Assembly (NCBI GenBank): GCA_045544715.1
Contig: JAZPZN010000108.1
Span: forward strand, 8,163-72,162
DNA from: Oscillospiraceae bacterium
GTDB taxonomy: Bacteria > Bacillota > Clostridia > Oscillospirales > Ruminococcaceae
DNA length: 64,000 nt
Direction of reading: 5' to 3'
Positions 2,570 through 58,592 of the stretch are shown in pieces. The position numbers and the translations under genes were made by a program. The notes under the pieces were generated by a model that was given only the letters and a program-made list of their open reading frames with translations, did no database searches and was not told the DNA's origin. Position 1 is the first letter of the stretch. Each line of letters opens with the position of its first letter.

Positions 2570-5218
2570 CTATTCTATCTCGTCATTGTTTTTGCTGTCA
2601 AGCTCCTGCATCACTCGATAAGCCTCATCATCCTCAGTAATGTGTGAGGTGCGCTCCTTTGGCTGGATACTGTCAAAATCATAGCGTGACATATCCATGA
2701 ATTCCTCTTCGACATCAGGCCACTGCAATGCCTCCTCTTCAGCAACATTTGTCCTGCCCTTTTCAGGGCAGTTGTAAATCTGCTTTGAAAGCTGCGAAAT
2801 GTATGCTTTGTGCGCCTTAACACCCTCAATCTGATCATACTGATACAAATGTGCAAAGGATTTAGGTCGTCTGCGCAACACAAACCACCATACAACAAAG
2901 TATGCCATCAGCAGCACTGCAGCAACAATAGTCATTATGATGCCAAGTTTAATACCTGGAGTTGTATAGGTGAAGCGTATCTCCTGAATGCCCTGCGGAA
3001 CCCTAATTGCCACAAAGCCTCCGTTGACCTTTTCGACATCAACACTTGTGCCGCCTACTGCTGCGCTCCATCCCTTGTCGAATGGCACGCTGAACACCAC
3101 AAGCTCATCACTCTCATAATTCGTCATGGCGGTAAATCCCGTATTGTTAACGTTGAACTGTATGATGCCTGATGCAATGCGATCCTCAGCGTCCTCAACA
3201 AAACGCTCATAGGTGGTAACATTCTCCTCATCCTCAGGAATAAGTGTGAGTATATCAGAGTATTTCTCAGCCTGCTCCTCGGTGAGCACTACGCTACGCA
3301 TCATCAGCTTGTCAGCAGCGCCTTTTTTCTTAGCATCCTCCAACAAAATATAGCTATCGTATGAATATCCCATGGGAAGAGCATAGTTGTTTTCGTATAT
3401 TTCATAATCTCCCTGTGTTTCACGATAGGTAAAGGTGGTAAGGCTGTCAAGAGCTTCCTGCTTTTCCTCCTCATCATGATCGGCACGAACTATGAAGTAT
3501 TTGGTATTTGTCAGAGATCTCAGAGCATAACGATCATGCTCAGGATCGGAGTTTACATCACGCTTGATGGAAAGCAGATCATACAACTCAAAAGTGGAGC
3601 TTGGAATTATGCTCGTAAAGCTCAGCAGACCGCTCTGATCCCACAGCATATTTGCATTTTTGATCTCACCAAAGGACTCGATACGATAAAAGCTTGCATC
3701 CTCTATCCTAATATCAGCACTCACCGTCTTGTTATAATCGCCGATGTAGGGTCCGAGTATCCTTCCGTAACCCACGAAGTAATATCCCAGCATCATGCTA
3801 CAGGCGATGGTCGCTGCGCAAGCTTTATTAAGGAACTCCGTTGTTGTGCTTTTTTTATGCATACGGATAAGAAATCCTAGTACCACCAGCATTCCTGCGG
3901 CAACTGCAAACTGGATGTACAGCACGGGAGACATATCATTGAGAAAGTTCGGCAAAATACGATCTGCCTTTTCTACAGTTCCATCTGCCGCAGTTATCTC
4001 ATATTCCTGTGTGGTAGGATGCAACATTACCACCGCTGCAATAGCTCCTGCAACAACTGCGCAGGACTTCAATCCGAACTTGAGGTCACACTCCCTGCGC
4101 TCTAGCGTATATACTGTTGCAAAGCAACAGATAAGCTCCGGCATATAGAACCAGCGAGTATAAAAATTGTTGTTCAGCAGCACAAACAACGCATTAAGTC
4201 CGGGCACTAATGCCATTGCAAGACATACTGGCAACACCGCCCTTGCCCAGTGGCCCTTTGCATCCTTTACAAATGCAATAACTCCTGCCATCGAAAACAA
4301 TGGCAGATACAACGCAACGCTTGACCACTTTGCATTTGCCTCAGTAAACATCAACGACCTCGCAGGCACCTCGGGCGGAAAGAATATTCCTTCCAATATC
4401 AGCCCGTAGCGCTGCTCATAACCGTAGAACAGGAAATTTGTATCCGACAATATATTTGTAGATCTAGGTACATCCAGCACCTGATATATCGACGGCACGA
4501 ACAGTATTCCCGCCAGCATCACACCTGCGATGCTCTCAAAGCCTAAACAGAAGAAATCCCCTGCTTTAATACGGAAATCCTTGCTCATACAAAGTCTTGC
4601 GACAAAATATATCACAAGAAATACACACTCTCCAATGAAGAAAAAATAATTAACGAACGCATTAAGCGCCACTGCCAACGCAAACACCACTCTGCGTTTG
4701 TTTACAACAGCCTCCTCCAGCCCTATCAGCAGCAGGGGAAAGAACACCATCGCCTCATGGAAGTGATTAAAGAATATGTTATACAATGAAAAACCCGAAA
4801 AAGCATACAAAATACCTGCGATAACGGCACTCTGCGGCTTTGTTACAAATCTGCGCACATACATAAATGCGAAGAGTGAGCAAAGCCCTAGCTTTAGAGC
4901 CAGCAGCGGTGCCATCAGATACTGCGAAACACTAGCAGGAAACAATGCAGCCAGCCAGAAGAACGGGCTGCCAAGAGTATAAAAGCTGTAGCTTCCCACA
5001 AAATTTACACCGAGGTCTGTCTGCCAGTTCCATCCAAAATTTCCATCATGCACTGCTTCGATGCAAGTCTTGTAAAATGGTATCTGCTGCGCATTATAGT
5101 CGCCGTAATAAACAAAATATCCTCCGTCTATCACTACAAATGGAAGCAACAGCACCAGCCCCATTATAAACGCTATCAGAAAGGCATTTCTATAATATTT
5201 CTTTTCCTGTTTAAGCAT
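2570..5218 (-). CDS. YfhO-family polytopic membrane glycosyltransferase (GT-C fold), copy B with acidic C-terminal tail
   Basis: GDYNAQQIPF, YTLGSPFFWL, LYAFSGF, FFNHFHE, many TM segments, VVFSVPFDKGW, YTTPG. Likely start MLKQEKK at 5218 (track starts at 5275). Confidence 0.85.
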   Translation of the reverse strand: MLKQEKKYYRNAFLIAFIMGLVLLLPFVVIDGGYFVYYGDYNAQQIPFYKTCIEAVHDGNFGWNWQTDLGVNFVGSYSFYTLGSPFFWLAALFPASVSQYLMAPLLALKLGLCSLFAFMYVRRFVTKPQSAVIAGILYAFSGFSLYNIFFNHFHEAMVFFPLLLIGLEEAVVNKRRVVFALAVALNAFVNYFFFIGECVFLVIYFVARLCMSKDFRIKAGDFFCLGFESIAGVMLAGILFVPSIYQVLDVPRSTNILSDTNFLFYGYEQRYGLILEGIFFPPEVPARSLMFTEANAKWSSVALYLPLFSMAGVIAFVKDAKGHWARAVLPVCLAMALVPGLNALFVLLNNNFYTRWFYMPELICCFATVYTLERRECDLKFGLKSCAVVAGAIAAVVMLHPTTQEYEITAADGTVEKADRILPNFLNDMSPVLYIQFAVAAGMLVVLGFLIRMHKKSTTTEFLNKACAATIACSMMLGYYFVGYGRILGPYIGDYNKTVSADIRIEDASFYRIESFGEIKNANMLWDQSGLLSFTSIIPSSTFELYDLLSIKRDVNSDPEHDRYALRSLTNTKYFIVRADHDEEEKQEALDSLTTFTYRETQGDYEIYENNYALPMGYSYDSYILLEDAKKKGAADKLMMRSVVLTEEQAEKYSDILTLIPEDEENVTTYERFVEDAEDRIASGIIQFNVNNTGFTAMTNYESDELVVFSVPFDKGWSAAVGGTSVDVEKVNGGFVAIRVPQGIQEIRFTYTTPGIKLGIIMTIVAAVLLMAYFVVWWFVLRRRPKSFAHLYQYDQIEGVKAHKAYISQLSKQIYNCPEKGRTNVAEEEALQWPDVEEEFMDMSRYDFDSIQPKERTSHITEDDEAYRVMQELDSKNNDEIE

Positions 5219-52656: not shown

Positions 52657-53703
52657 ATGAAAAAATTATTCATTTTATTTGCTGTAATTCTTGCCACTAC
52701 ATCATTCAGCACTAATAATTACATTGAAACTGCCAATATCAACGAACCGGTCGGTGAACAAATTTCAAATGAAGAGCCAAAAGACATTAAGGTAATATAT
52801 AATGACACTATCATTTCTGAAGCCGATCCCAACTATGACCCTAAAACAGGGAATGAAAATCGAGCAAAAATAGAGAAAATGTTAGAAACAATAGGCGAAT
52901 ATGAAAGCATTGTCTGCAACACACAAACAGGAGAGTTATATATACAAGATAACTCAAAAAAATATCAGGAAATTCAACAATCAGCCAATGGTACAACTCT
53001 ATCAATTGAAGAAATTGATTCAAACTTAACTGATATTACGACACCAATGGGCATATTTGATAGAATGCAAATTACAAATGTAAATTATGCGCCCTATTGC
53101 TACACCGCCTATACAGAATCACACTTTCCCGATGGAACAATTATAGCAGGTTCAGGATTTTTCGTAGATGGAAACACCATACTAACAGCTGCCCACTTAA
53201 TCTATGATGCGAACCATGGCGGATATGCTTCTGTTGAAGCATATCCTGGCGGAACAAATTCAAACTTTCCTTCACGAATTTCAGTTTCAGCCATAGCTGC
53301 AAATAATTATATAGCACAAGGCAACAATGCATATATGTATGATTATGGTGTAGTATCTTTTGGCTCAACTATGGTTGCAGGAAATTTCACACTAGCAATC
53401 CCATCTCAATCCTCAACATTAAATGCTGACAATGATTTTCTTGGTTATCCTGGGGACAAAAACAGAGGGGAATTGTGGGTAAGTTATGGTAGCATTATCA
53501 ACACTGATAGTTCATTATATTTTCTTAGCGATGCTTTTTCGGTACCGGGGAATAGCGGAGGCGCAGTAATACTTCCAGAAAACATATATAAATCAATTGG
53601 AATTGTATCGGGTGAATATACCGTGAACAATGTTCCTACAGGCGATATTTTCTGTATTAGAATAAACAATTCCGTTATCAACTTTGTAAATGCCAACAAA
53701 TAA
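52657..53703 (+). CDS. Secreted trypsin-like (S1, V8-like fold) serine protease, AT-rich
   Basis: Signal peptide; GSGFFV, LTAAH (His), YDYG (Asp), GNSGG (Ser). Confidence 0.85.
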   Translation: MKKLFILFAVILATTSFSTNNYIETANINEPVGEQISNEEPKDIKVIYNDTIISEADPNYDPKTGNENRAKIEKMLETIGEYESIVCNTQTGELYIQDNSKKYQEIQQSANGTTLSIEEIDSNLTDITTPMGIFDRMQITNVNYAPYCYTAYTESHFPDGTIIAGSGFFVDGNTILTAAHLIYDANHGGYASVEAYPGGTNSNFPSRISVSAIAANNYIAQGNNAYMYDYGVVSFGSTMVAGNFTLAIPSQSSTLNADNDFLGYPGDKNRGELWVSYGSIINTDSSLYFLSDAFSVPGNSGGAVILPENIYKSIGIVSGEYTVNNVPTGDIFCIRINNSVINFVNANK

Positions 53704-53716
53704 TTTCATAACAATT

Positions 53717-53750
53717 TGGAGCAAGTTTACAATATAGTAAGCTTGCTCCA
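53717..53750. terminator. Hairpin between convergent genes
   Basis: tggagcaagtttac-aatata-gtaagcttgctcca. Confidence 0.7.
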
Positions 53751-53776
53751 GCTTTATTGTGTTAATAGTCGATGCA

Positions 53777-54871
53777 CTATTTAATTTTTAAATCATACAA
53801 AAGCTTTGATTTGATAGACTTTAATACCCTCCGCACCGCCTCATCGACATTATCCCTGCTATCCTCCGTTTTTATCAGCATAGGAAAATTATGCTCCCCA
53901 CGATACAAGTGAGTGCGGTCGGTTATTGCATGATGATACTTGTGGAAAAGCTCCTCCTCGGATAGCTCTGCGAAATCTGCCCTTTCAACTGCACAAAGCC
54001 TTGACAGAAAATCCTCCGTCACCCGCCCGATATCGTAGCTATGCTCCTCGTCGCTGACATCACGGTTAAGAAGCAATATGCGGTCTGTAGACACGGCACT
54101 TCCGTCGGTGTATTTCAGCTCCTTGTCCGTTACCTCGGCTATCACCTTGTCGTAAATGTGCTCGGAGTAATAATCATCTCCCTCACGGATAAGTACCGTA
54201 ACGCTCTTCACCTTGTCACCCTTGATGAATATGTCAGTGACAGATGCATCATCAACCGCTATGCCCTCACCGCTGAAATCCATATAGTATTCATACAATC
54301 TTCCGTTTTTCGCCCTATGACTAGCACAGTAAGAGATATTGCGGGAATTTATACACTCGTTAGAGTGGTCAATGGAATACTGCACGAATGCCTCTATGCA
54401 CTTTTTAAGCTCGTACAGCTCCCACTCGTTGACGGTGACACGTATGCCCTTATCCTCTCTGCCTGCATAGACCTCGTAACTCCTCTCTCCGCACACATCC
54501 GTATAGCACTTTACCGAGTAATAATCCTCGCATACCCAGTAAGTGGTGTCGTATTCCTGCTCAACTGCCCCGTTCGGGATATCGGACTTTTTGCTGTCCT
54601 CAGGCTCTACGGTCAGCGCATATTCCACCACATCCAGCAGACGGAATATAGCGGGAAAATCAAAAGCCCTTATACCGCTTACCTTCTCCCACTCGCTGCC
54701 GTTTCTGCTGTAGGTATCAAGGTCATAATAATAGTACAGGATATCCTGAGCAGTATATATTTTGCGATTTTCATCATGCCAGGGCTGAATATGTGGGTCA
54801 GAAAAGGTGAGCTTATAGCTGTCATTCTGCCACGAAAATACATCTCCCTCACGGATAAACTTGAACTCCAT
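53777..54871 (-). CDS. Hypothetical acidic, Tyr-rich soluble protein
   Basis: Long ORF; AGGAGG RBS overlaps the stop of the upstream ART-like gene; no motif recognised. Confidence 0.7.
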   Translation of the reverse strand: MEFKFIREGDVFSWQNDSYKLTFSDPHIQPWHDENRKIYTAQDILYYYYDLDTYSRNGSEWEKVSGIRAFDFPAIFRLLDVVEYALTVEPEDSKKSDIPNGAVEQEYDTTYWVCEDYYSVKCYTDVCGERSYEVYAGREDKGIRVTVNEWELYELKKCIEAFVQYSIDHSNECINSRNISYCASHRAKNGRLYEYYMDFSGEGIAVDDASVTDIFIKGDKVKSVTVLIREGDDYYSEHIYDKVIAEVTDKELKYTDGSAVSTDRILLLNRDVSDEEHSYDIGRVTEDFLSRLCAVERADFAELSEEELFHKYHHAITDRTHLYRGEHNFPMLIKTEDSRDNVDEAVRRVLKSIKSKLLYDLKIK

Positions 54872-54881
54872 CATGCACCTC

Positions 54882-55307
54882 CTATGCTGCTTTGAATTTC
54901 TCAACTCCAACGATCACTGCACTGTCTGCCACATACTCATTTGTATTGATATGCCACACTGCACCCCTCGGAGATACTCTGAATATAATCGGCTCGCCGC
55001 CGTATTTCGTTACCGCCTTTTTGGCGAACTTCGCCGCCGACAGCGGAGATGTGGTAAAAAACACCTTGTCTATGTACTTTTTGCGCCAATCCTCTCTGAG
55101 TATCCCTGTAACGCTTGGCGGCAATATCCGCCGCTTAATGTTCAGCGCAGAGGATGTTCCGTGATAATATATGTTATGAGAACTTGTTCTCATAAGTCTG
55201 CGAAGCAGACCGCCGCTAAGCGGCGAACATATATTACAAGGTTCACTCAGCCGTCCAAATCTTTGATTTGAAAACGGCGAGTGGTTCTTATAATATTCGG
55301 GCTTCAT
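54882..55307 (-). CDS. Arr-like ADP-ribosyltransferase-fold protein
   Basis: YYHGTS...ILPP....R......VFFTTS..SA.KFA..A...GG.P.IF.V.P.G resembles rifampin ADP-ribosyltransferase motif spacing; AAGGAGG RBS. Confidence 0.6.
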   Translation of the reverse strand: MKPEYYKNHSPFSNQRFGRLSEPCNICSPLSGGLLRRLMRTSSHNIYYHGTSSALNIKRRILPPSVTGILREDWRKKYIDKVFFTTSPLSAAKFAKKAVTKYGGEPIIFRVSPRGAVWHINTNEYVADSAVIVGVEKFKAA

Positions 55308-55401
55308 AATTGCCTCCTTGCAAATATGTCAAGCTCCCATTCCAAGAATATTTTACCACAAATTTCTGCCTTTGTCTTTACGGCAAAGCCGTAGAACTTC
55401 A

Positions 55402-55575
55402 TTTGTCCCTTTTGTCACGTGTCCCTAAAGTATAGATGTAGATATCGCAAAAATCACTGTGCAGATAATATTTAGTATATATAATTATTATTAAAATGGC
55501 TTTCTATATATTTCTGATACAGAAAAAACAAAACTATATATCTATGCTTAAGGACATTGTGACAAAAAGGACAAA
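55402..55575. repeat. 174-bp element bounded by imperfect ~28-37-bp inverted repeats
   Basis: Left tttgtcccttttgtcacgtgtccctaa (55402-55428) vs reverse complement of right arm 55548-55575 tttgtcctttttgtcacaatgtccttaa: 24/28 matches, extending inward (gtatagat/gcatagat). Confidence 0.75.
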
Positions 55576-55678
55576 GACTGCAAACAGCTTTATTATGCTA
55601 TTTACTCTGCCCCACCCCTTTTGTAACAAACGGACAATAACGGACAAAAAGGCGCAGCTTTTATACTGCGCCTTTAAT

Positions 55679-56098
55679 TTATAGCTCAATGCGATAGATG
55701 AGCGCATCGTCATCGCCGTAATATCCCTTCCTGACAGATATACGCTCGTATCCGAATTTTTCATACAGAGCTATTGCTGAGGAGTTTTTGCTGCGCACCT
55801 CTAAAAAGCAACACACTGCACCCTTGTCCTTCAGAGTGAAATGAAAATACTGCATCAAGCCCTCAGCAAAGTGCTGCCTGCGGAAATCAGGATGAACAGC
55901 TATCTGATACAGCTCGCCCTCGTCAGCGACAACTCTGCCGATAATAAAGCCTGTCACTCTGCCTTTATGCTCTCCGAGACAGAACACCGACAGGGGATTG
56001 TTTATCTCCTCCAGCAGCATCTCCCTTGTCCAGCTGCCGTGAAAGCAGAGCTGCTCTATCTCGTCAAGCTGTTCTATCTGCTTATCAGTGAGCGTCAT
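55679..56098 (-). CDS. rimI: Ribosomal protein S18-alanine N-acetyltransferase (GNAT)
   Basis: CF...W, GELYQIAVHPDFRRQ, FLEVRSKNSSAIALYEKFGY...RKGYY..DDAL. Confidence 0.88.
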   Translation of the reverse strand: MTLTDKQIEQLDEIEQLCFHGSWTREMLLEEINNPLSVFCLGEHKGRVTGFIIGRVVADEGELYQIAVHPDFRRQHFAEGLMQYFHFTLKDKGAVCCFLEVRSKNSSAIALYEKFGYERISVRKGYYGDDDALIYRIEL

Positions 56099-58592
56099 AC
56101 CAGTTCTTTCCCTCCTTTGCGTCAACCGTAAGAGGTACTGAGAGCTTTACAGCATTCTCCATCTCGCTGCGGAGTATCTCGGTCGCCTTTGCGCTGTCTG
56201 CCTCGGGTACTTCAACGATAAGCTCATCGTGTACTTGAAGTATCAGTCTTGCGGAAGGGAGCTCCTCTTTAAGGCGTTTATACACCTTTACCATTGCTAT
56301 CTTGATGATATCGGCGGCAGTGCCCTGAATGGGAGTATTCATAGCAATGCGCTTTCCCAAAGCCTTTACGACCTTGTTTGCCGCCAGCATTTCGGGAATA
56401 AATCTGCGCCTGCCAAACATCGTCACCGCATACCCATCCTCCTCTGCACTGTCGGTGATGTGAGCCATGTATTCCTTAACTCCCGAGAAGGTGCTGAGAT
56501 AGCTGTCAATATATCGCTTCGCCTCTGCGACAGAGGTACCTATATCCTTTGCCAGCGAGAACGCTCCGATGCCGTACACGATACCGAAGTTTACCGCCTT
56601 TGCACTGCGGCGCATATCCTCATCCACCCACTCTAGTGGCTGACCAAACACGCTTGCCGCCGTCTGGGCATGGATGTCTCCGCCGCTCTTAAATATCTCT
56701 ATCATCGTCTTGTCATCTGCGAGGTGTGCGAGCACTCTCAGCTCTATCTGACTGTAGTCGGCATCCACCAGCACCATTCCCTCGGAGGCGGTGAAGAATT
56801 TGCGGAAGTTCCTGCCAAGCTCTGTCCTTACGGGAATGTTCTGGATATTCGGCTCAGCAGAGGATATTCTACCCGTGCGAGTTTCCGTCTGCTTAAAAGT
56901 AGTGTGCATTTTTTTATCTTCGGAAACTGCACTTTCCAAGCCCTTGATGTAGGTGTTATACAGCTTTGTCATAGTGCGATATTCAAATATCAGCGGAATT
57001 ATCGGGTGCAAATCCCTGAGCGCCTCCAGCGTATCCGCATTGGTAGAGTAGCCGCCCGATTTGCTCTTTTTGCCTGCGGGAAGTCCCAGCTCCTCAAAAA
57101 GCACAACGCTTAGCTGTTTTGGAGAGCCGATATTGAACTGTCTGCCCGCCTGCGCATATATCTCCTGCTCGATAGAGGCTATCTGCGGAAGGAGTGTTTC
57201 GCCAAACTCATGGAGCGCCGTCAAATCCATCGCTATTCCGTATATCTCCATAGAGGACAGCACCTCTGCAAGAGGTATCTCTATCTCGGAGAGTATCTTG
57301 TACATACCCTCCTCGCATAGCTTTGAAAAAAGGATAATATTAAGCTCCAGAAGCGTCTGACCGATCGCTTCTGCCTTATAGGATACACCGTACTCTGCGC
57401 AAAGCCTCTCCACGCTGTAGTCGTTGGAGTTTACATTAAGGAGATATGCGGCAAGGGTGGTGTCGAAAACGACATTCTTGAGCTGTATTCCGTTCTTGAT
57501 ACAATGATAATACAGAGCCTTTGCATTAACAGTGCGCTTAGGAGCATCGCTTTCCAAAAATGCCTTTATATCTCCCTCATAGGTCTCACTACCCTTGTAT
57601 GCGCTTACCGCATCTCCGTCAAGCACCACATCGTAGGCATTGATATCGAAATCCACCTTGTCGGGGATAACATTCCGTTTAGCAGGGGCTTTTTCAGCCT
57701 TTGCAGGTGTAGCGGATGCACCCTTTATTGGCACGGCATCAATGCCAAGCTTCTTCATGGTGGAAAACATCTCCATCTCGGTAAAAAGCTCTGCGGCTCT
57801 CTGCTTGTCGCCGCCCGAAACGGTGTATTTCTCCACATCCTCATCAACGGGAGCATATAGCTCTATCTCTCCCAACCTTCTGCTGAGCAGTGCGTTGTCC
57901 TTATCCGCTTCAAGCTTTGCACGCACGCCCTTTGTAACATCAATAAAGCCGATATTTGCATAGATATACTCGATGCTATGATACTTCTGAATAAGCGAAA
58001 GCGCAGTCTTTTCTCCGATACCCTTTACACCCGGAATATTGTCAGAGCTGTCGCCCATAAGCGCCTTTACCTCCAGCATCTCACGGGGAGTTACTCCATA
58101 CACCTCAGCTATCTTGGCGGTATCGTACATCACATCGCCCTTTGTAGAGGGATAGCGTACAGTTACCCGTTCACCAATAAGCTGAAAGCTGTCACGGTCG
58201 CCCGTCAATATAACGCAATCCATCCCCTTTTCAGCCGCCGCACGGGAGAGCGTACCGATGATGTCATCGGCTTCAAAGCCCTCTGTTTCCAGCACGGTAA
58301 CACCCATGGCTTTCAGCATTTCTCTTATAACAGGCATCTGCTGGATAAGCTCGTCGGGAGCTTTGTTTCGGGTGCCCTTATACTCCGCATACATCTTATG
58401 GCGGAATGTGGGAGCATCCATATCAAATGCTGCTACGACAAAGTCGGGCTTTTCCTCATTCATAACTCTGATATAGGTGCTCATAAAGCCCGTCAATGCA
58501 TTGGTGAAATGCCCTCTTTTATTACTTAGCAGCTTTATCGCATAAAATGCACGAAACAGGATATTGTTGCCGTCAATTGCGAGTAATTTCAT
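56085..58592 (-). CDS. polA: DNA polymerase I
   Basis: 5'-3' exonuclease IDGNN..FRAFYA, FEADDIIGT, TGDRD, LMGDSSDNIPGVKGIGEKTA; polymerase TRTGRISS.EPNIQNIP, ADYSQIELR, AKAVNFGIVYG, LQVHDEL; promoter TTGACT-18-TATAAT at 58662-58633. Confidence 0.97.
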   Translation of the reverse strand: MKLLAIDGNNILFRAFYAIKLLSNKRGHFTNALTGFMSTYIRVMNEEKPDFVVAAFDMDAPTFRHKMYAEYKGTRNKAPDELIQQMPVIREMLKAMGVTVLETEGFEADDIIGTLSRAAAEKGMDCVILTGDRDSFQLIGERVTVRYPSTKGDVMYDTAKIAEVYGVTPREMLEVKALMGDSSDNIPGVKGIGEKTALSLIQKYHSIEYIYANIGFIDVTKGVRAKLEADKDNALLSRRLGEIELYAPVDEDVEKYTVSGGDKQRAAELFTEMEMFSTMKKLGIDAVPIKGASATPAKAEKAPAKRNVIPDKVDFDINAYDVVLDGDAVSAYKGSETYEGDIKAFLESDAPKRTVNAKALYYHCIKNGIQLKNVVFDTTLAAYLLNVNSNDYSVERLCAEYGVSYKAEAIGQTLLELNIILFSKLCEEGMYKILSEIEIPLAEVLSSMEIYGIAMDLTALHEFGETLLPQIASIEQEIYAQAGRQFNIGSPKQLSVVLFEELGLPAGKKSKSGGYSTNADTLEALRDLHPIIPLIFEYRTMTKLYNTYIKGLESAVSEDKKMHTTFKQTETRTGRISSAEPNIQNIPVRTELGRNFRKFFTASEGMVLVDADYSQIELRVLAHLADDKTMIEIFKSGGDIHAQTAASVFGQPLEWVDEDMRRSAKAVNFGIVYGIGAFSLAKDIGTSVAEAKRYIDSYLSTFSGVKEYMAHITDSAEEDGYAVTMFGRRRFIPEMLAANKVVKALGKRIAMNTPIQGTAADIIKIAMVKVYKRLKEELPSARLILQVHDELIVEVPEADSAKATEILRSEMENAVKLSVPLTVDAKEGKNWYDAH

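Follow-up and report, generated by a model that had tools for sequence, protein, structure and literature searches.

A predicted minimal ADP-ribosyltransferase gene and the gene of an acidic three-domain protein in one putative transcription unit of an Oscillospiraceae bacterium

We analysed two adjacent minus-strand genes in a 64,000-nucleotide stretch of the genome of an Oscillospiraceae bacterium (assembly GCA_045544715.1, contig JAZPZN010000108.1, positions 8,163 to 72,162), the whole of which is called the window below. The first gene encodes a 141-residue protein with a predicted ADP-ribosyltransferase (ART) fold, here termed the mini-ART, and the second encodes an acidic protein of 364 residues, termed the partner. 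The explanation that we favour, with confidence a little better than even, is that these are two independently distributed mobile-element conflict genes which have been retained and are co-expressed as a cassette within one clade. An earlier reading of the sequence alone had seen in them a two-gene module and a candidate new toxin-antitoxin or defence system. That proposal was not supported, as the two families proved not to be paired outside a small clade and PADLOC returned no match. The main features of the two genes are as follows.

54882–55307, minus strand: mini-ART gene, a 141-residue open reading frame (ORF) with a strong ribosome-binding site (RBS), AAGGAGG, 5′ of its ATG
54900–55169, minus strand: mini-ART catalytic core, residues 47–136, from the AlphaFold2 model, Foldseek and alignments
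53777–54871, minus strand: partner gene, 364 residues, beginning MEFKF
54323–54871, minus strand: partner N-terminal domain, residues 1–183, two copies of four strands plus a helix, Whirly/MRP-like by AlphaFold2 and Foldseek, with an isoelectric point (pI) of 4.5
54047–54322, minus strand: partner middle domain, residues 184–275, all-beta in the AlphaFold2 secondary structure
53777–54046, minus strand: partner C-terminal helical domain, residues 276–364, with the motif R319...E326-H327 (NRTxMxRxEH), from AlphaFold2 and conservation

Results

The two families are paired in one clade only

Co-occurrence was examined by running hidden Markov models (HMMs) of both families on every locus fetched, with flanks of up to 6 kb; several of the partner contigs had short flanks. 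The partner was absent from all 32 mini-ART loci outside the window's clade, which represent ∼23 independent contexts, and the mini-ART was absent from all 29 partner loci outside the clade, which represent ∼12. The genes that lie downstream of the other mini-ART loci were considered as hidden relatives of the partner and were rejected by the HMM search. The pair was found only in the window and in the related loci L001, L002/L003, L086 and L087, in each case downstream of polA-rimI. Because the families do not co-occur outside this clade, a dedicated toxin-antitoxin system is probably not what the genes represent, and their pairing here appears to be lineage-specific. Such a lack of co-occurrence is among the outcomes by which, according to the sequence-only reading itself, its module would be refuted.

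Both genes have nevertheless been kept. The ratio of non-synonymous to synonymous change (dN/dS) was 0.08–0.10 for the mini-ART and 0.14–0.19 for the partner, with dS saturated. The low ratios place both genes under purifying selection in the clade and, together with the existence of homologues, show that both ORFs are real genes. Selection of this kind suggests that the host probably gains from the cassette, for example by the exclusion of other phages.

Within the clade the two genes are also plastic. In three lineages (L001, L086 and L087) the partner is cut to 272–280 residues and the C-terminal domain is missing, and in L001 and L087 the mini-ART remains intact, with its histidine present. 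L086, whose flanks are 96.5% identical to those of the window, has a mini-ART gene at 527–952 with 96% identity to ours; there, a His49Asn change in the mini-ART coincides with a truncated partner (280 residues, GTG start). The cassette carries no mobility genes and varies between strains.

The pair is also rare among relatives. The mini-ART was found in one of 61 related genomes and was absent from the other 60, which include 36 species of the same genus, and the partner was found in one of 399 genomes of the class and was absent from the other 398. The sequence-only reading had placed the pair in an accessory block between proS and rimI-polA. Its accessory character stands, since 36 other species of the genus lack the pair; the adjacency to proS is not conserved within the genus. 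A clean empty site could not be demonstrated in same-genus species, where unrelated genes follow rimI.

The first gene encodes a predicted minimal ADP-ribosyltransferase

The mini-ART is a basic protein (pI 10.1), and the motifs that had been read from its sequence were all present: YYHGT at residues 47–51, VFFTTS at 82–87 and a late NEY at 123–125. An AlphaFold2 model built on 28 relatives gave pLDDT values of 83–94 in all but one 10-residue block of the core (residues 47–136), with a disordered N-terminus. When the model was compared with the PDB using Foldseek, the best matches were Arr structures (9iaf and 2hw2; probability 1.0, E 3e-4), followed by Tpt1/KptA and then by toxin-type ARTs, namely pertussis- and cholera-type chains. 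The top matches were thus all ARTs, as expected for the split beta-sheet fold of these enzymes. In a profile search of PDB sequences (E 0.073), His49 was paired with His19 of Arr, and Phe83 with Tyr49. The assignment to the ARTs made in the sequence-only reading is therefore supported by the confident core of the model, by the Arr and Tpt1 matches and by the alignment of His49 and Phe83.

Domain libraries were less informative. The only Pfam match was to Arr-ms (PF12120); it scored 13.6 bits, which is below the threshold of 25, and covered model positions 1–65 of 99; similarly weak Arr-ms matches were seen in 24 of the 28 family members. NCBIfam and PADLOC gave no match for the mini-ART, and Pfam gave no match to Tpt1. 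We conclude that the first gene encodes a protein with a predicted ART fold that is not a member of the Arr family.

Alignment of the family, including ORF040c of phage RB69, identified the invariant residues as Y48, H49 and G50; P63 and P64; E72, R75 and K77; V82, F83, F84 and T85; G103 and G104; and P106. The threonine that follows the invariant YHG is near-invariant (serine in RB69). VFFT does not vary across the broad alignment, although Y/I variants occur rarely elsewhere. The third catalytic residue of ARTs is usually acidic; the sole acidic residue that is invariant in this family is E72, which lies in the loop that joins strand 1 to strand 2. The glutamate of NEY (E124) is conserved in at least 90% of the gut subfamily and is replaced by threonine, serine or aspartate in RB69 and marine homologues. 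The late NEY is thus present as had been noted, with its glutamate conserved in the gut subfamily only.

The mini-ART shares with Arr a small single-domain architecture, the YHGT strand, the aromatic-x-Thr strand, an E-x2-R loop and a GG...P strand. It differs in having a core of ∼95 rather than ∼140 residues, in lacking the last third of the Arr domain, in falling below the whole-domain gathering cut-off of PF12120 and in being phage-borne. Of the Arr triad His19-Tyr49-Asp84, the histidine is present, the tyrosine is replaced by phenylalanine and Asp84 has no alignable counterpart.

Relatives of the mini-ART are widespread in phages

A search of PHROGs matched the mini-ART to phrog_2110 (E 5.5e-19), for which no function is recorded. 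Using tblastn, we found a homologue in 610 phage records, mostly of T4-like phages of Escherichia, Klebsiella, Acinetobacter and Aeromonas. The RB69 homologue, ORF040c, overlaps the start of dmd, within the plastic early region that separates gene 41 from gene 61. The relatives are 93–105 residues long and the native size of the family is ∼95–105 residues. Homologues on metagenomic and IMG/VR contigs lie within strings of small co-directional ORFs, and no neighbouring gene recurs next to them across contexts; one homologue adjoins Bro-N/ANT, RlaP and RNA-ligase genes, in a single context. A protein of the R2K-clade ATP-grasp type lies just 3′ of a homologue in one phage-like context, with a clear match, and possibly in a second, with a weak one (L007, 4984–5793; L010, 4443–4952).

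On two IMG/VR jumbo-phage contigs the domain is part of a longer protein. In L052 (4456–6312) it forms the C-terminus of a 618-residue Toprim/primase-like protein. In L050 (5449–8001) it lies inside an 850-residue protein with two further ART-like modules of the YH[GA]T type; a 618-residue protein neighbouring this multi-ART protein also carries a YHAT module. The relative fused to the Toprim-like protein was the only one to reach the Arr-ms cut-off (25.5 bits).

We found no functional study of RB69 ORF040c, phrog_2110 or Arr-like phage ARTs in the literature searched; general background on phage ARTs is given in PMC9503650. The phrog_2110/ORF040c family is an uncharacterised phage family, whose members phages carry as a stand-alone early or accessory gene. 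The Alt, ModA and ModB proteins of phage T4 are likewise phage-encoded early or accessory ARTs of T-even genomes. They belong to the R-S-E type clade and are much larger, and they gave no sequence match or top-ranking fold match to the mini-ART. From genomic context and the phage ART background (PMC9503650), host takeover or counter-defence is the likely role of such phage-encoded genes.

The partner belongs to a separate acidic family with a largely new fold

The partner (pI 4.8) contains 73 aspartate and glutamate residues and 29 tyrosines. Its start was set at the ATG at 54871, and not at an upstream TTG, on the basis of the N-termini of homologues (MEFRF...). A word-index homologue search recovered only five relatives, so that an exhaustive HMM search was needed; this gave at least 206 representatives at 50% identity, mostly of 360–390 residues. 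Acidity is a property of the family as a whole, the pI being below 6 in 96% of members. The near-invariant residues are Y49, P73, D116, Y118, G137, F162, N171, R319, E326 and H327.

No match to the partner was found in Pfam, NCBIfam or PADLOC, and a search of the partner and its phage neighbours against PHROGs gave nothing for the partner. Pfam searches of 98 relatives and of eight longer, fused relatives revealed no consistent family; the only matches were to DUF6557 and DUF5704, on the extra parts.

With a deep alignment, AlphaFold2 gave a very confident model (pLDDT 95.3, pTM 0.90) that comprises three domains. In the N-terminal domain, strands within residues 4–69 are followed by a helix at 75–87, and strands within 103–147 by a helix at 149–183. 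Foldseek matched this domain to MRP1/MRP2 (probability 0.95) and to a large number of uncharacterised proteins from phages, one of which bears the name Whirly (probability ∼1.0). The repeated beta4-alpha topology of the Whirly, MRP1-MRP2 and PUR-type single-strand nucleic-acid binders is thus present, but the E-values and TM-scores were weak. Moreover, the domain differs from those of the known binders in being strongly acidic and in being fused to two domains without known relatives, and its pI of 4.5 argues against classical single-strand nucleic-acid binding. Fold searches gave no informative match for the partner outside this domain. The partner had been described as an acidic protein without a recognisable domain; its acidity and its lack of Pfam, NCBIfam and PADLOC matches bear this out, and the Whirly-like N-terminal domain found by the fold search amends it.

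Pfam, NCBIfam, PADLOC and the fold searches provided no sign of a macro, ARH or NADAR-type hydrolase fold in the partner. These searches lend no support to the suggestion that it might be a hydrolase antitoxin.

Members of the partner family, retrieved as loci with a 16-sequence alignment, are present on IMG/VR viral contigs and metagenome contigs; tblastn searches of the INPHARED phages with two different queries gave no match. The plasmid pJFP838A (404 kb) of Clostridium perfringens carries a homologue, which a Wadjet-like cluster precedes. A human-gut element that recurs (L073–L075, L079–L081 and L085) has the family beside DUF5688, a microbial-type PARG (PF10021, E 2e-28), a DarA_C protein, BspA-type LRR proteins and thymidylate synthase. 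This block, with its PARG-type ADP-ribose hydrolase, is a counter-defence-like neighbourhood. In two unrelated contexts (L004, 522–1103; L018, 7377–8093) the neighbour is an MmcB-like/PD-(D/E)xK-type protein (phrog_2776 and phrog_5429, ‘DNA repair protein’).

In L004 a distant homologue of the partner is also followed, 1 kb downstream, by a 133-residue ART-like ORF (3546–3947; LYHAT...VYLSE...YEY) that has no Pfam match. This YHAT ORF is of a different type from the mini-ART and is separated from the partner homologue by an opposite-strand gene. We rejected the possibility that an ART of one kind or another is a general feature of partner loci, as this was the only such ORF found outside the clade.

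The pair has the layout of a closed transcription unit

The following features surround the two genes.

54878–54884, minus strand: junction TAGGAGG, in which the mini-ART stop overlaps the partner Shine–Dalgarno sequence, with the partner ATG at 54869–54871
55350–55378, minus strand: promoter-like site AAGACA-17-TGGTAAAAT with an extended −10, from a consensus scan, its function being presumed
55379–55393, unstranded: perfect 6-3-6 palindrome TACGGC-AAA-GCCGTA, which abuts the −35 box on its upstream side, from reading of the sequence
53716–53751, unstranded: hairpin with a 15-bp stem between the convergent partner and protease genes, from the sequence
55164–55289, minus strand: in-frame 126-bp insertion, codons 7–48 of the mini-ART gene, flanked by TATTAT, from DNA alignment; a genus-specific structured repeat

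The translational coupling reported in the sequence-only reading was confirmed: the TAG stop of the mini-ART (54882–54884) overlaps the AGGAGG of the partner (54878–54883), which is followed after 6 nt by the partner ATG. The gap between stop and start stays short (8–23 nt) in relatives L001 and L002. DNA alignment showed that the promoter hexamers are kept in these two relatives, as is the RBS. The palindrome, a possible operator, is kept for the most part in L002 and to some extent in L001; the cassette has no regulator gene of its own. At the other end, the hairpin at 53716–53751 is likely a bidirectional terminator that closes the two-gene unit. A further hairpin, at 55648–55675 immediately 3′ of rimI, suggests that the two genes are transcribed on their own.

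Two other elements were observed nearby. Between rimI and the mini-ART promoter there is an inverted repeat (55402–55575) with 39-nt arms that are 77% complementary. Between the partner and proS lies a low-GC (31–38%) gene for a secreted trypsin-like protease (52657–53703; Trypsin_2/Trypsin). The protease gene is missing from L001, L086 and L087, and is therefore a separate, strain-specific acquisition.

A structured repeat is inserted in frame in the mini-ART gene

The insertion at 55164–55289 is absent from L001 and L002 and is present in L086. It accounts for the 141-residue length of the mini-ART, which is thus secondary. The inserted repeat, of ∼127–129 nt, is both interspersed and tandem and is specific to part of the genus: the genome has two further copies, in tandem, at another site (G000:C135:3289–3546, L028), and copies were found in five genomes of the genus, with up to 16 per genome (L029–L038). 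Compared with shuffled controls, the fold of the repeat is much more stable (z = −8.2). A multi-hairpin structure is common to ten copies, and nine of its 38 pairs show compensatory changes. An Rfam scan of 53000–56500 gave no significant match for the repeat, and TRF detected no array at the second repeat locus. The reading frames of both genes are intact, including through the insertion, and the residues that it encodes are disordered in the AlphaFold2 model of the mini-ART.

Discussion

We favour the following account of the locus. A minus-strand operon, which would run from the promoter through the mini-ART gene and the coupled partner gene to the terminator, appears to derive by capture from mobile DNA and to have become fixed, within a narrow clade of gut Clostridia, at a variable site 3′ of polA-rimI. 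Its first gene would encode a minimal ART of ∼95 residues, of the Arr/Tpt1-like branch, which, from its fold and motifs, most likely carries out NAD+-dependent mono-ADP-ribosylation of a macromolecular target. In this enzyme NAD+ would be held by His49 and Phe83/84-Thr85, and the invariant basic loop LRE72-x2-R75-K-K77 may contact the substrate or a phosphate. Our favoured guess for the target is a nucleic-acid end or a nucleic-acid-associated protein, because of this basic, invariant E-x2-R-x-K loop, the fusion to Toprim and the replication and RNA contexts of homologues. The second gene encodes an acidic three-domain protein of a separate, unannotated family that occurs in phages, on a megaplasmid and in gut mobile elements.

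Several points weigh against this account. The tight overlap of stop and RBS, and the combination of a basic enzyme with an acidic partner, would also fit a functional pair, as would the fact that at least three lineages have retained both genes although their synonymous sites are saturated. In other elements, members of the partner family lie near a PARG-type hydrolase and, in one case, near a YHAT ORF of ART-like type, which hints at some connection with ADP-ribose biology. We found no donor phage with the two genes side by side, so that their joint capture is only proposed. The activity and target of the mini-ART are themselves predictions from fold and motifs.

The alternative that best survives the evidence, which we consider unlikely, is a lineage-specific toxin-neutraliser or abortive-infection pair. 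The mini-ART would be toxic, and the acidic partner, made stoichiometrically through translational coupling, would block it by binding or by nucleic-acid mimicry until infection freed the enzyme. The stop codon placed over the partner RBS, the opposed pI values (10.1 and 4.8), the joint retention under purifying selection in several lineages and the palindrome at the promoter are all in keeping with such a pair, as is the coincidence of the His49Asn mini-ART with a truncated partner in L086. So is the gene order. In darT-darG the small ART gene comes first and is followed by a larger multidomain gene; here, as in DarT-DarG and ParT-ParS, a small basic ART gene precedes a larger, translationally coupled one, of ∼360 codons and multidomain. 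However, neither a macro nor any other hydrolase fold was seen for the second gene of this pair, none of the ∼23 mini-ART and ∼12 partner contexts has the two families together, no PADLOC model matches and ParT stands far down the list of mini-ART fold matches. In phages the mini-ART genes stand alone, with no recurring neighbour, and L001 and L087 keep an intact mini-ART beside a partner that has lost its C-terminal domain.

Somewhat less likely again is that a phage mini-ART and an acidic Whirly-like protein of a different mobile-element family were joined within the clade into a new ADP-ribosylation-based toxin-neutraliser or defence pair. The partner would then be a nucleic-acid mimic or a new ADP-ribose-linked factor, which would fit the PARG-type neighbours of its family in other elements.

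We regard it as improbable that the cassette is a decaying remnant of mobile DNA without present function. The repeat element inserted in the mini-ART gene, the natural loss of the catalytic histidine (H49N), the truncation of the partner in three lineages, the lack of mobility genes and the strain-to-strain variation of the cassette would all be explained by decay. Against this, both frames are intact even through the 126-bp insertion, dN/dS is 0.08–0.19 despite saturated dS, and the promoter and RBS are conserved.

A Tpt1-like role in RNA repair, in which the mini-ART would remove or ADP-ribosylate terminal RNA phosphates, seems more doubtful still. The mini-ART resembles Tpt1/KptA in the fold of the NAD+ lobe (8tg3, 8tfi and 9ld4) and in belonging to the H-Y/H-x branch of ARTs, and Tpt1/KptA also occurs in phages; Tpt1 structures were the second-best fold matches, one homologue adjoins RlaP and RNA-ligase genes, the RB69 copy abuts dmd and one relative is fused to Toprim. 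The N-terminal RNA lobe of Tpt1 carries most of the catalytic Arg-His-Arg-Arg tetrad. The mini-ART consists of the NAD lobe only (TM-target 0.28–0.33, to NAD lobes alone), its ∼95-residue core leaves no room for an N-terminal RNA lobe, and the RNA-repair neighbourhood occurs in one context only.

The least likely reading, also raised from the sequence alone, is that the mini-ART is an enzyme of resistance to rifamycin or another small molecule, accompanied by a passenger gene: Arr is its nearest solved structure and sole Pfam match, but that match is sub-threshold and stops at model position 65, the core is ∼45 residues shorter than that of Arr, the gene is absent from other species of the genus, and a widespread accessory family of lytic phages is an unlikely home for antibiotic resistance.

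On the reading that we favour, of two independently distributed genes held together in one clade, the chromosomal pair is probably unremarkable, being two genes of mobile elements that have come to rest at a variable locus. The structured repeat tolerated in frame inside an enzyme gene is a neat small case in itself. The wider interest lies in two blind spots to which the pair points. One is a minimal ART of ∼95 residues, for which no function is recorded in the libraries searched. It is found across hundreds of phages of the T4-like, jumbo and gut types, among them the laboratory phage RB69, and would be one of the smallest ART domains. The other is an acidic family of 360–390 residues, with at least 206 clusters, which neither Pfam nor PHROGs covers with a model and which combines a very confidently predicted, largely new three-domain fold with counter-defence-like neighbourhoods.

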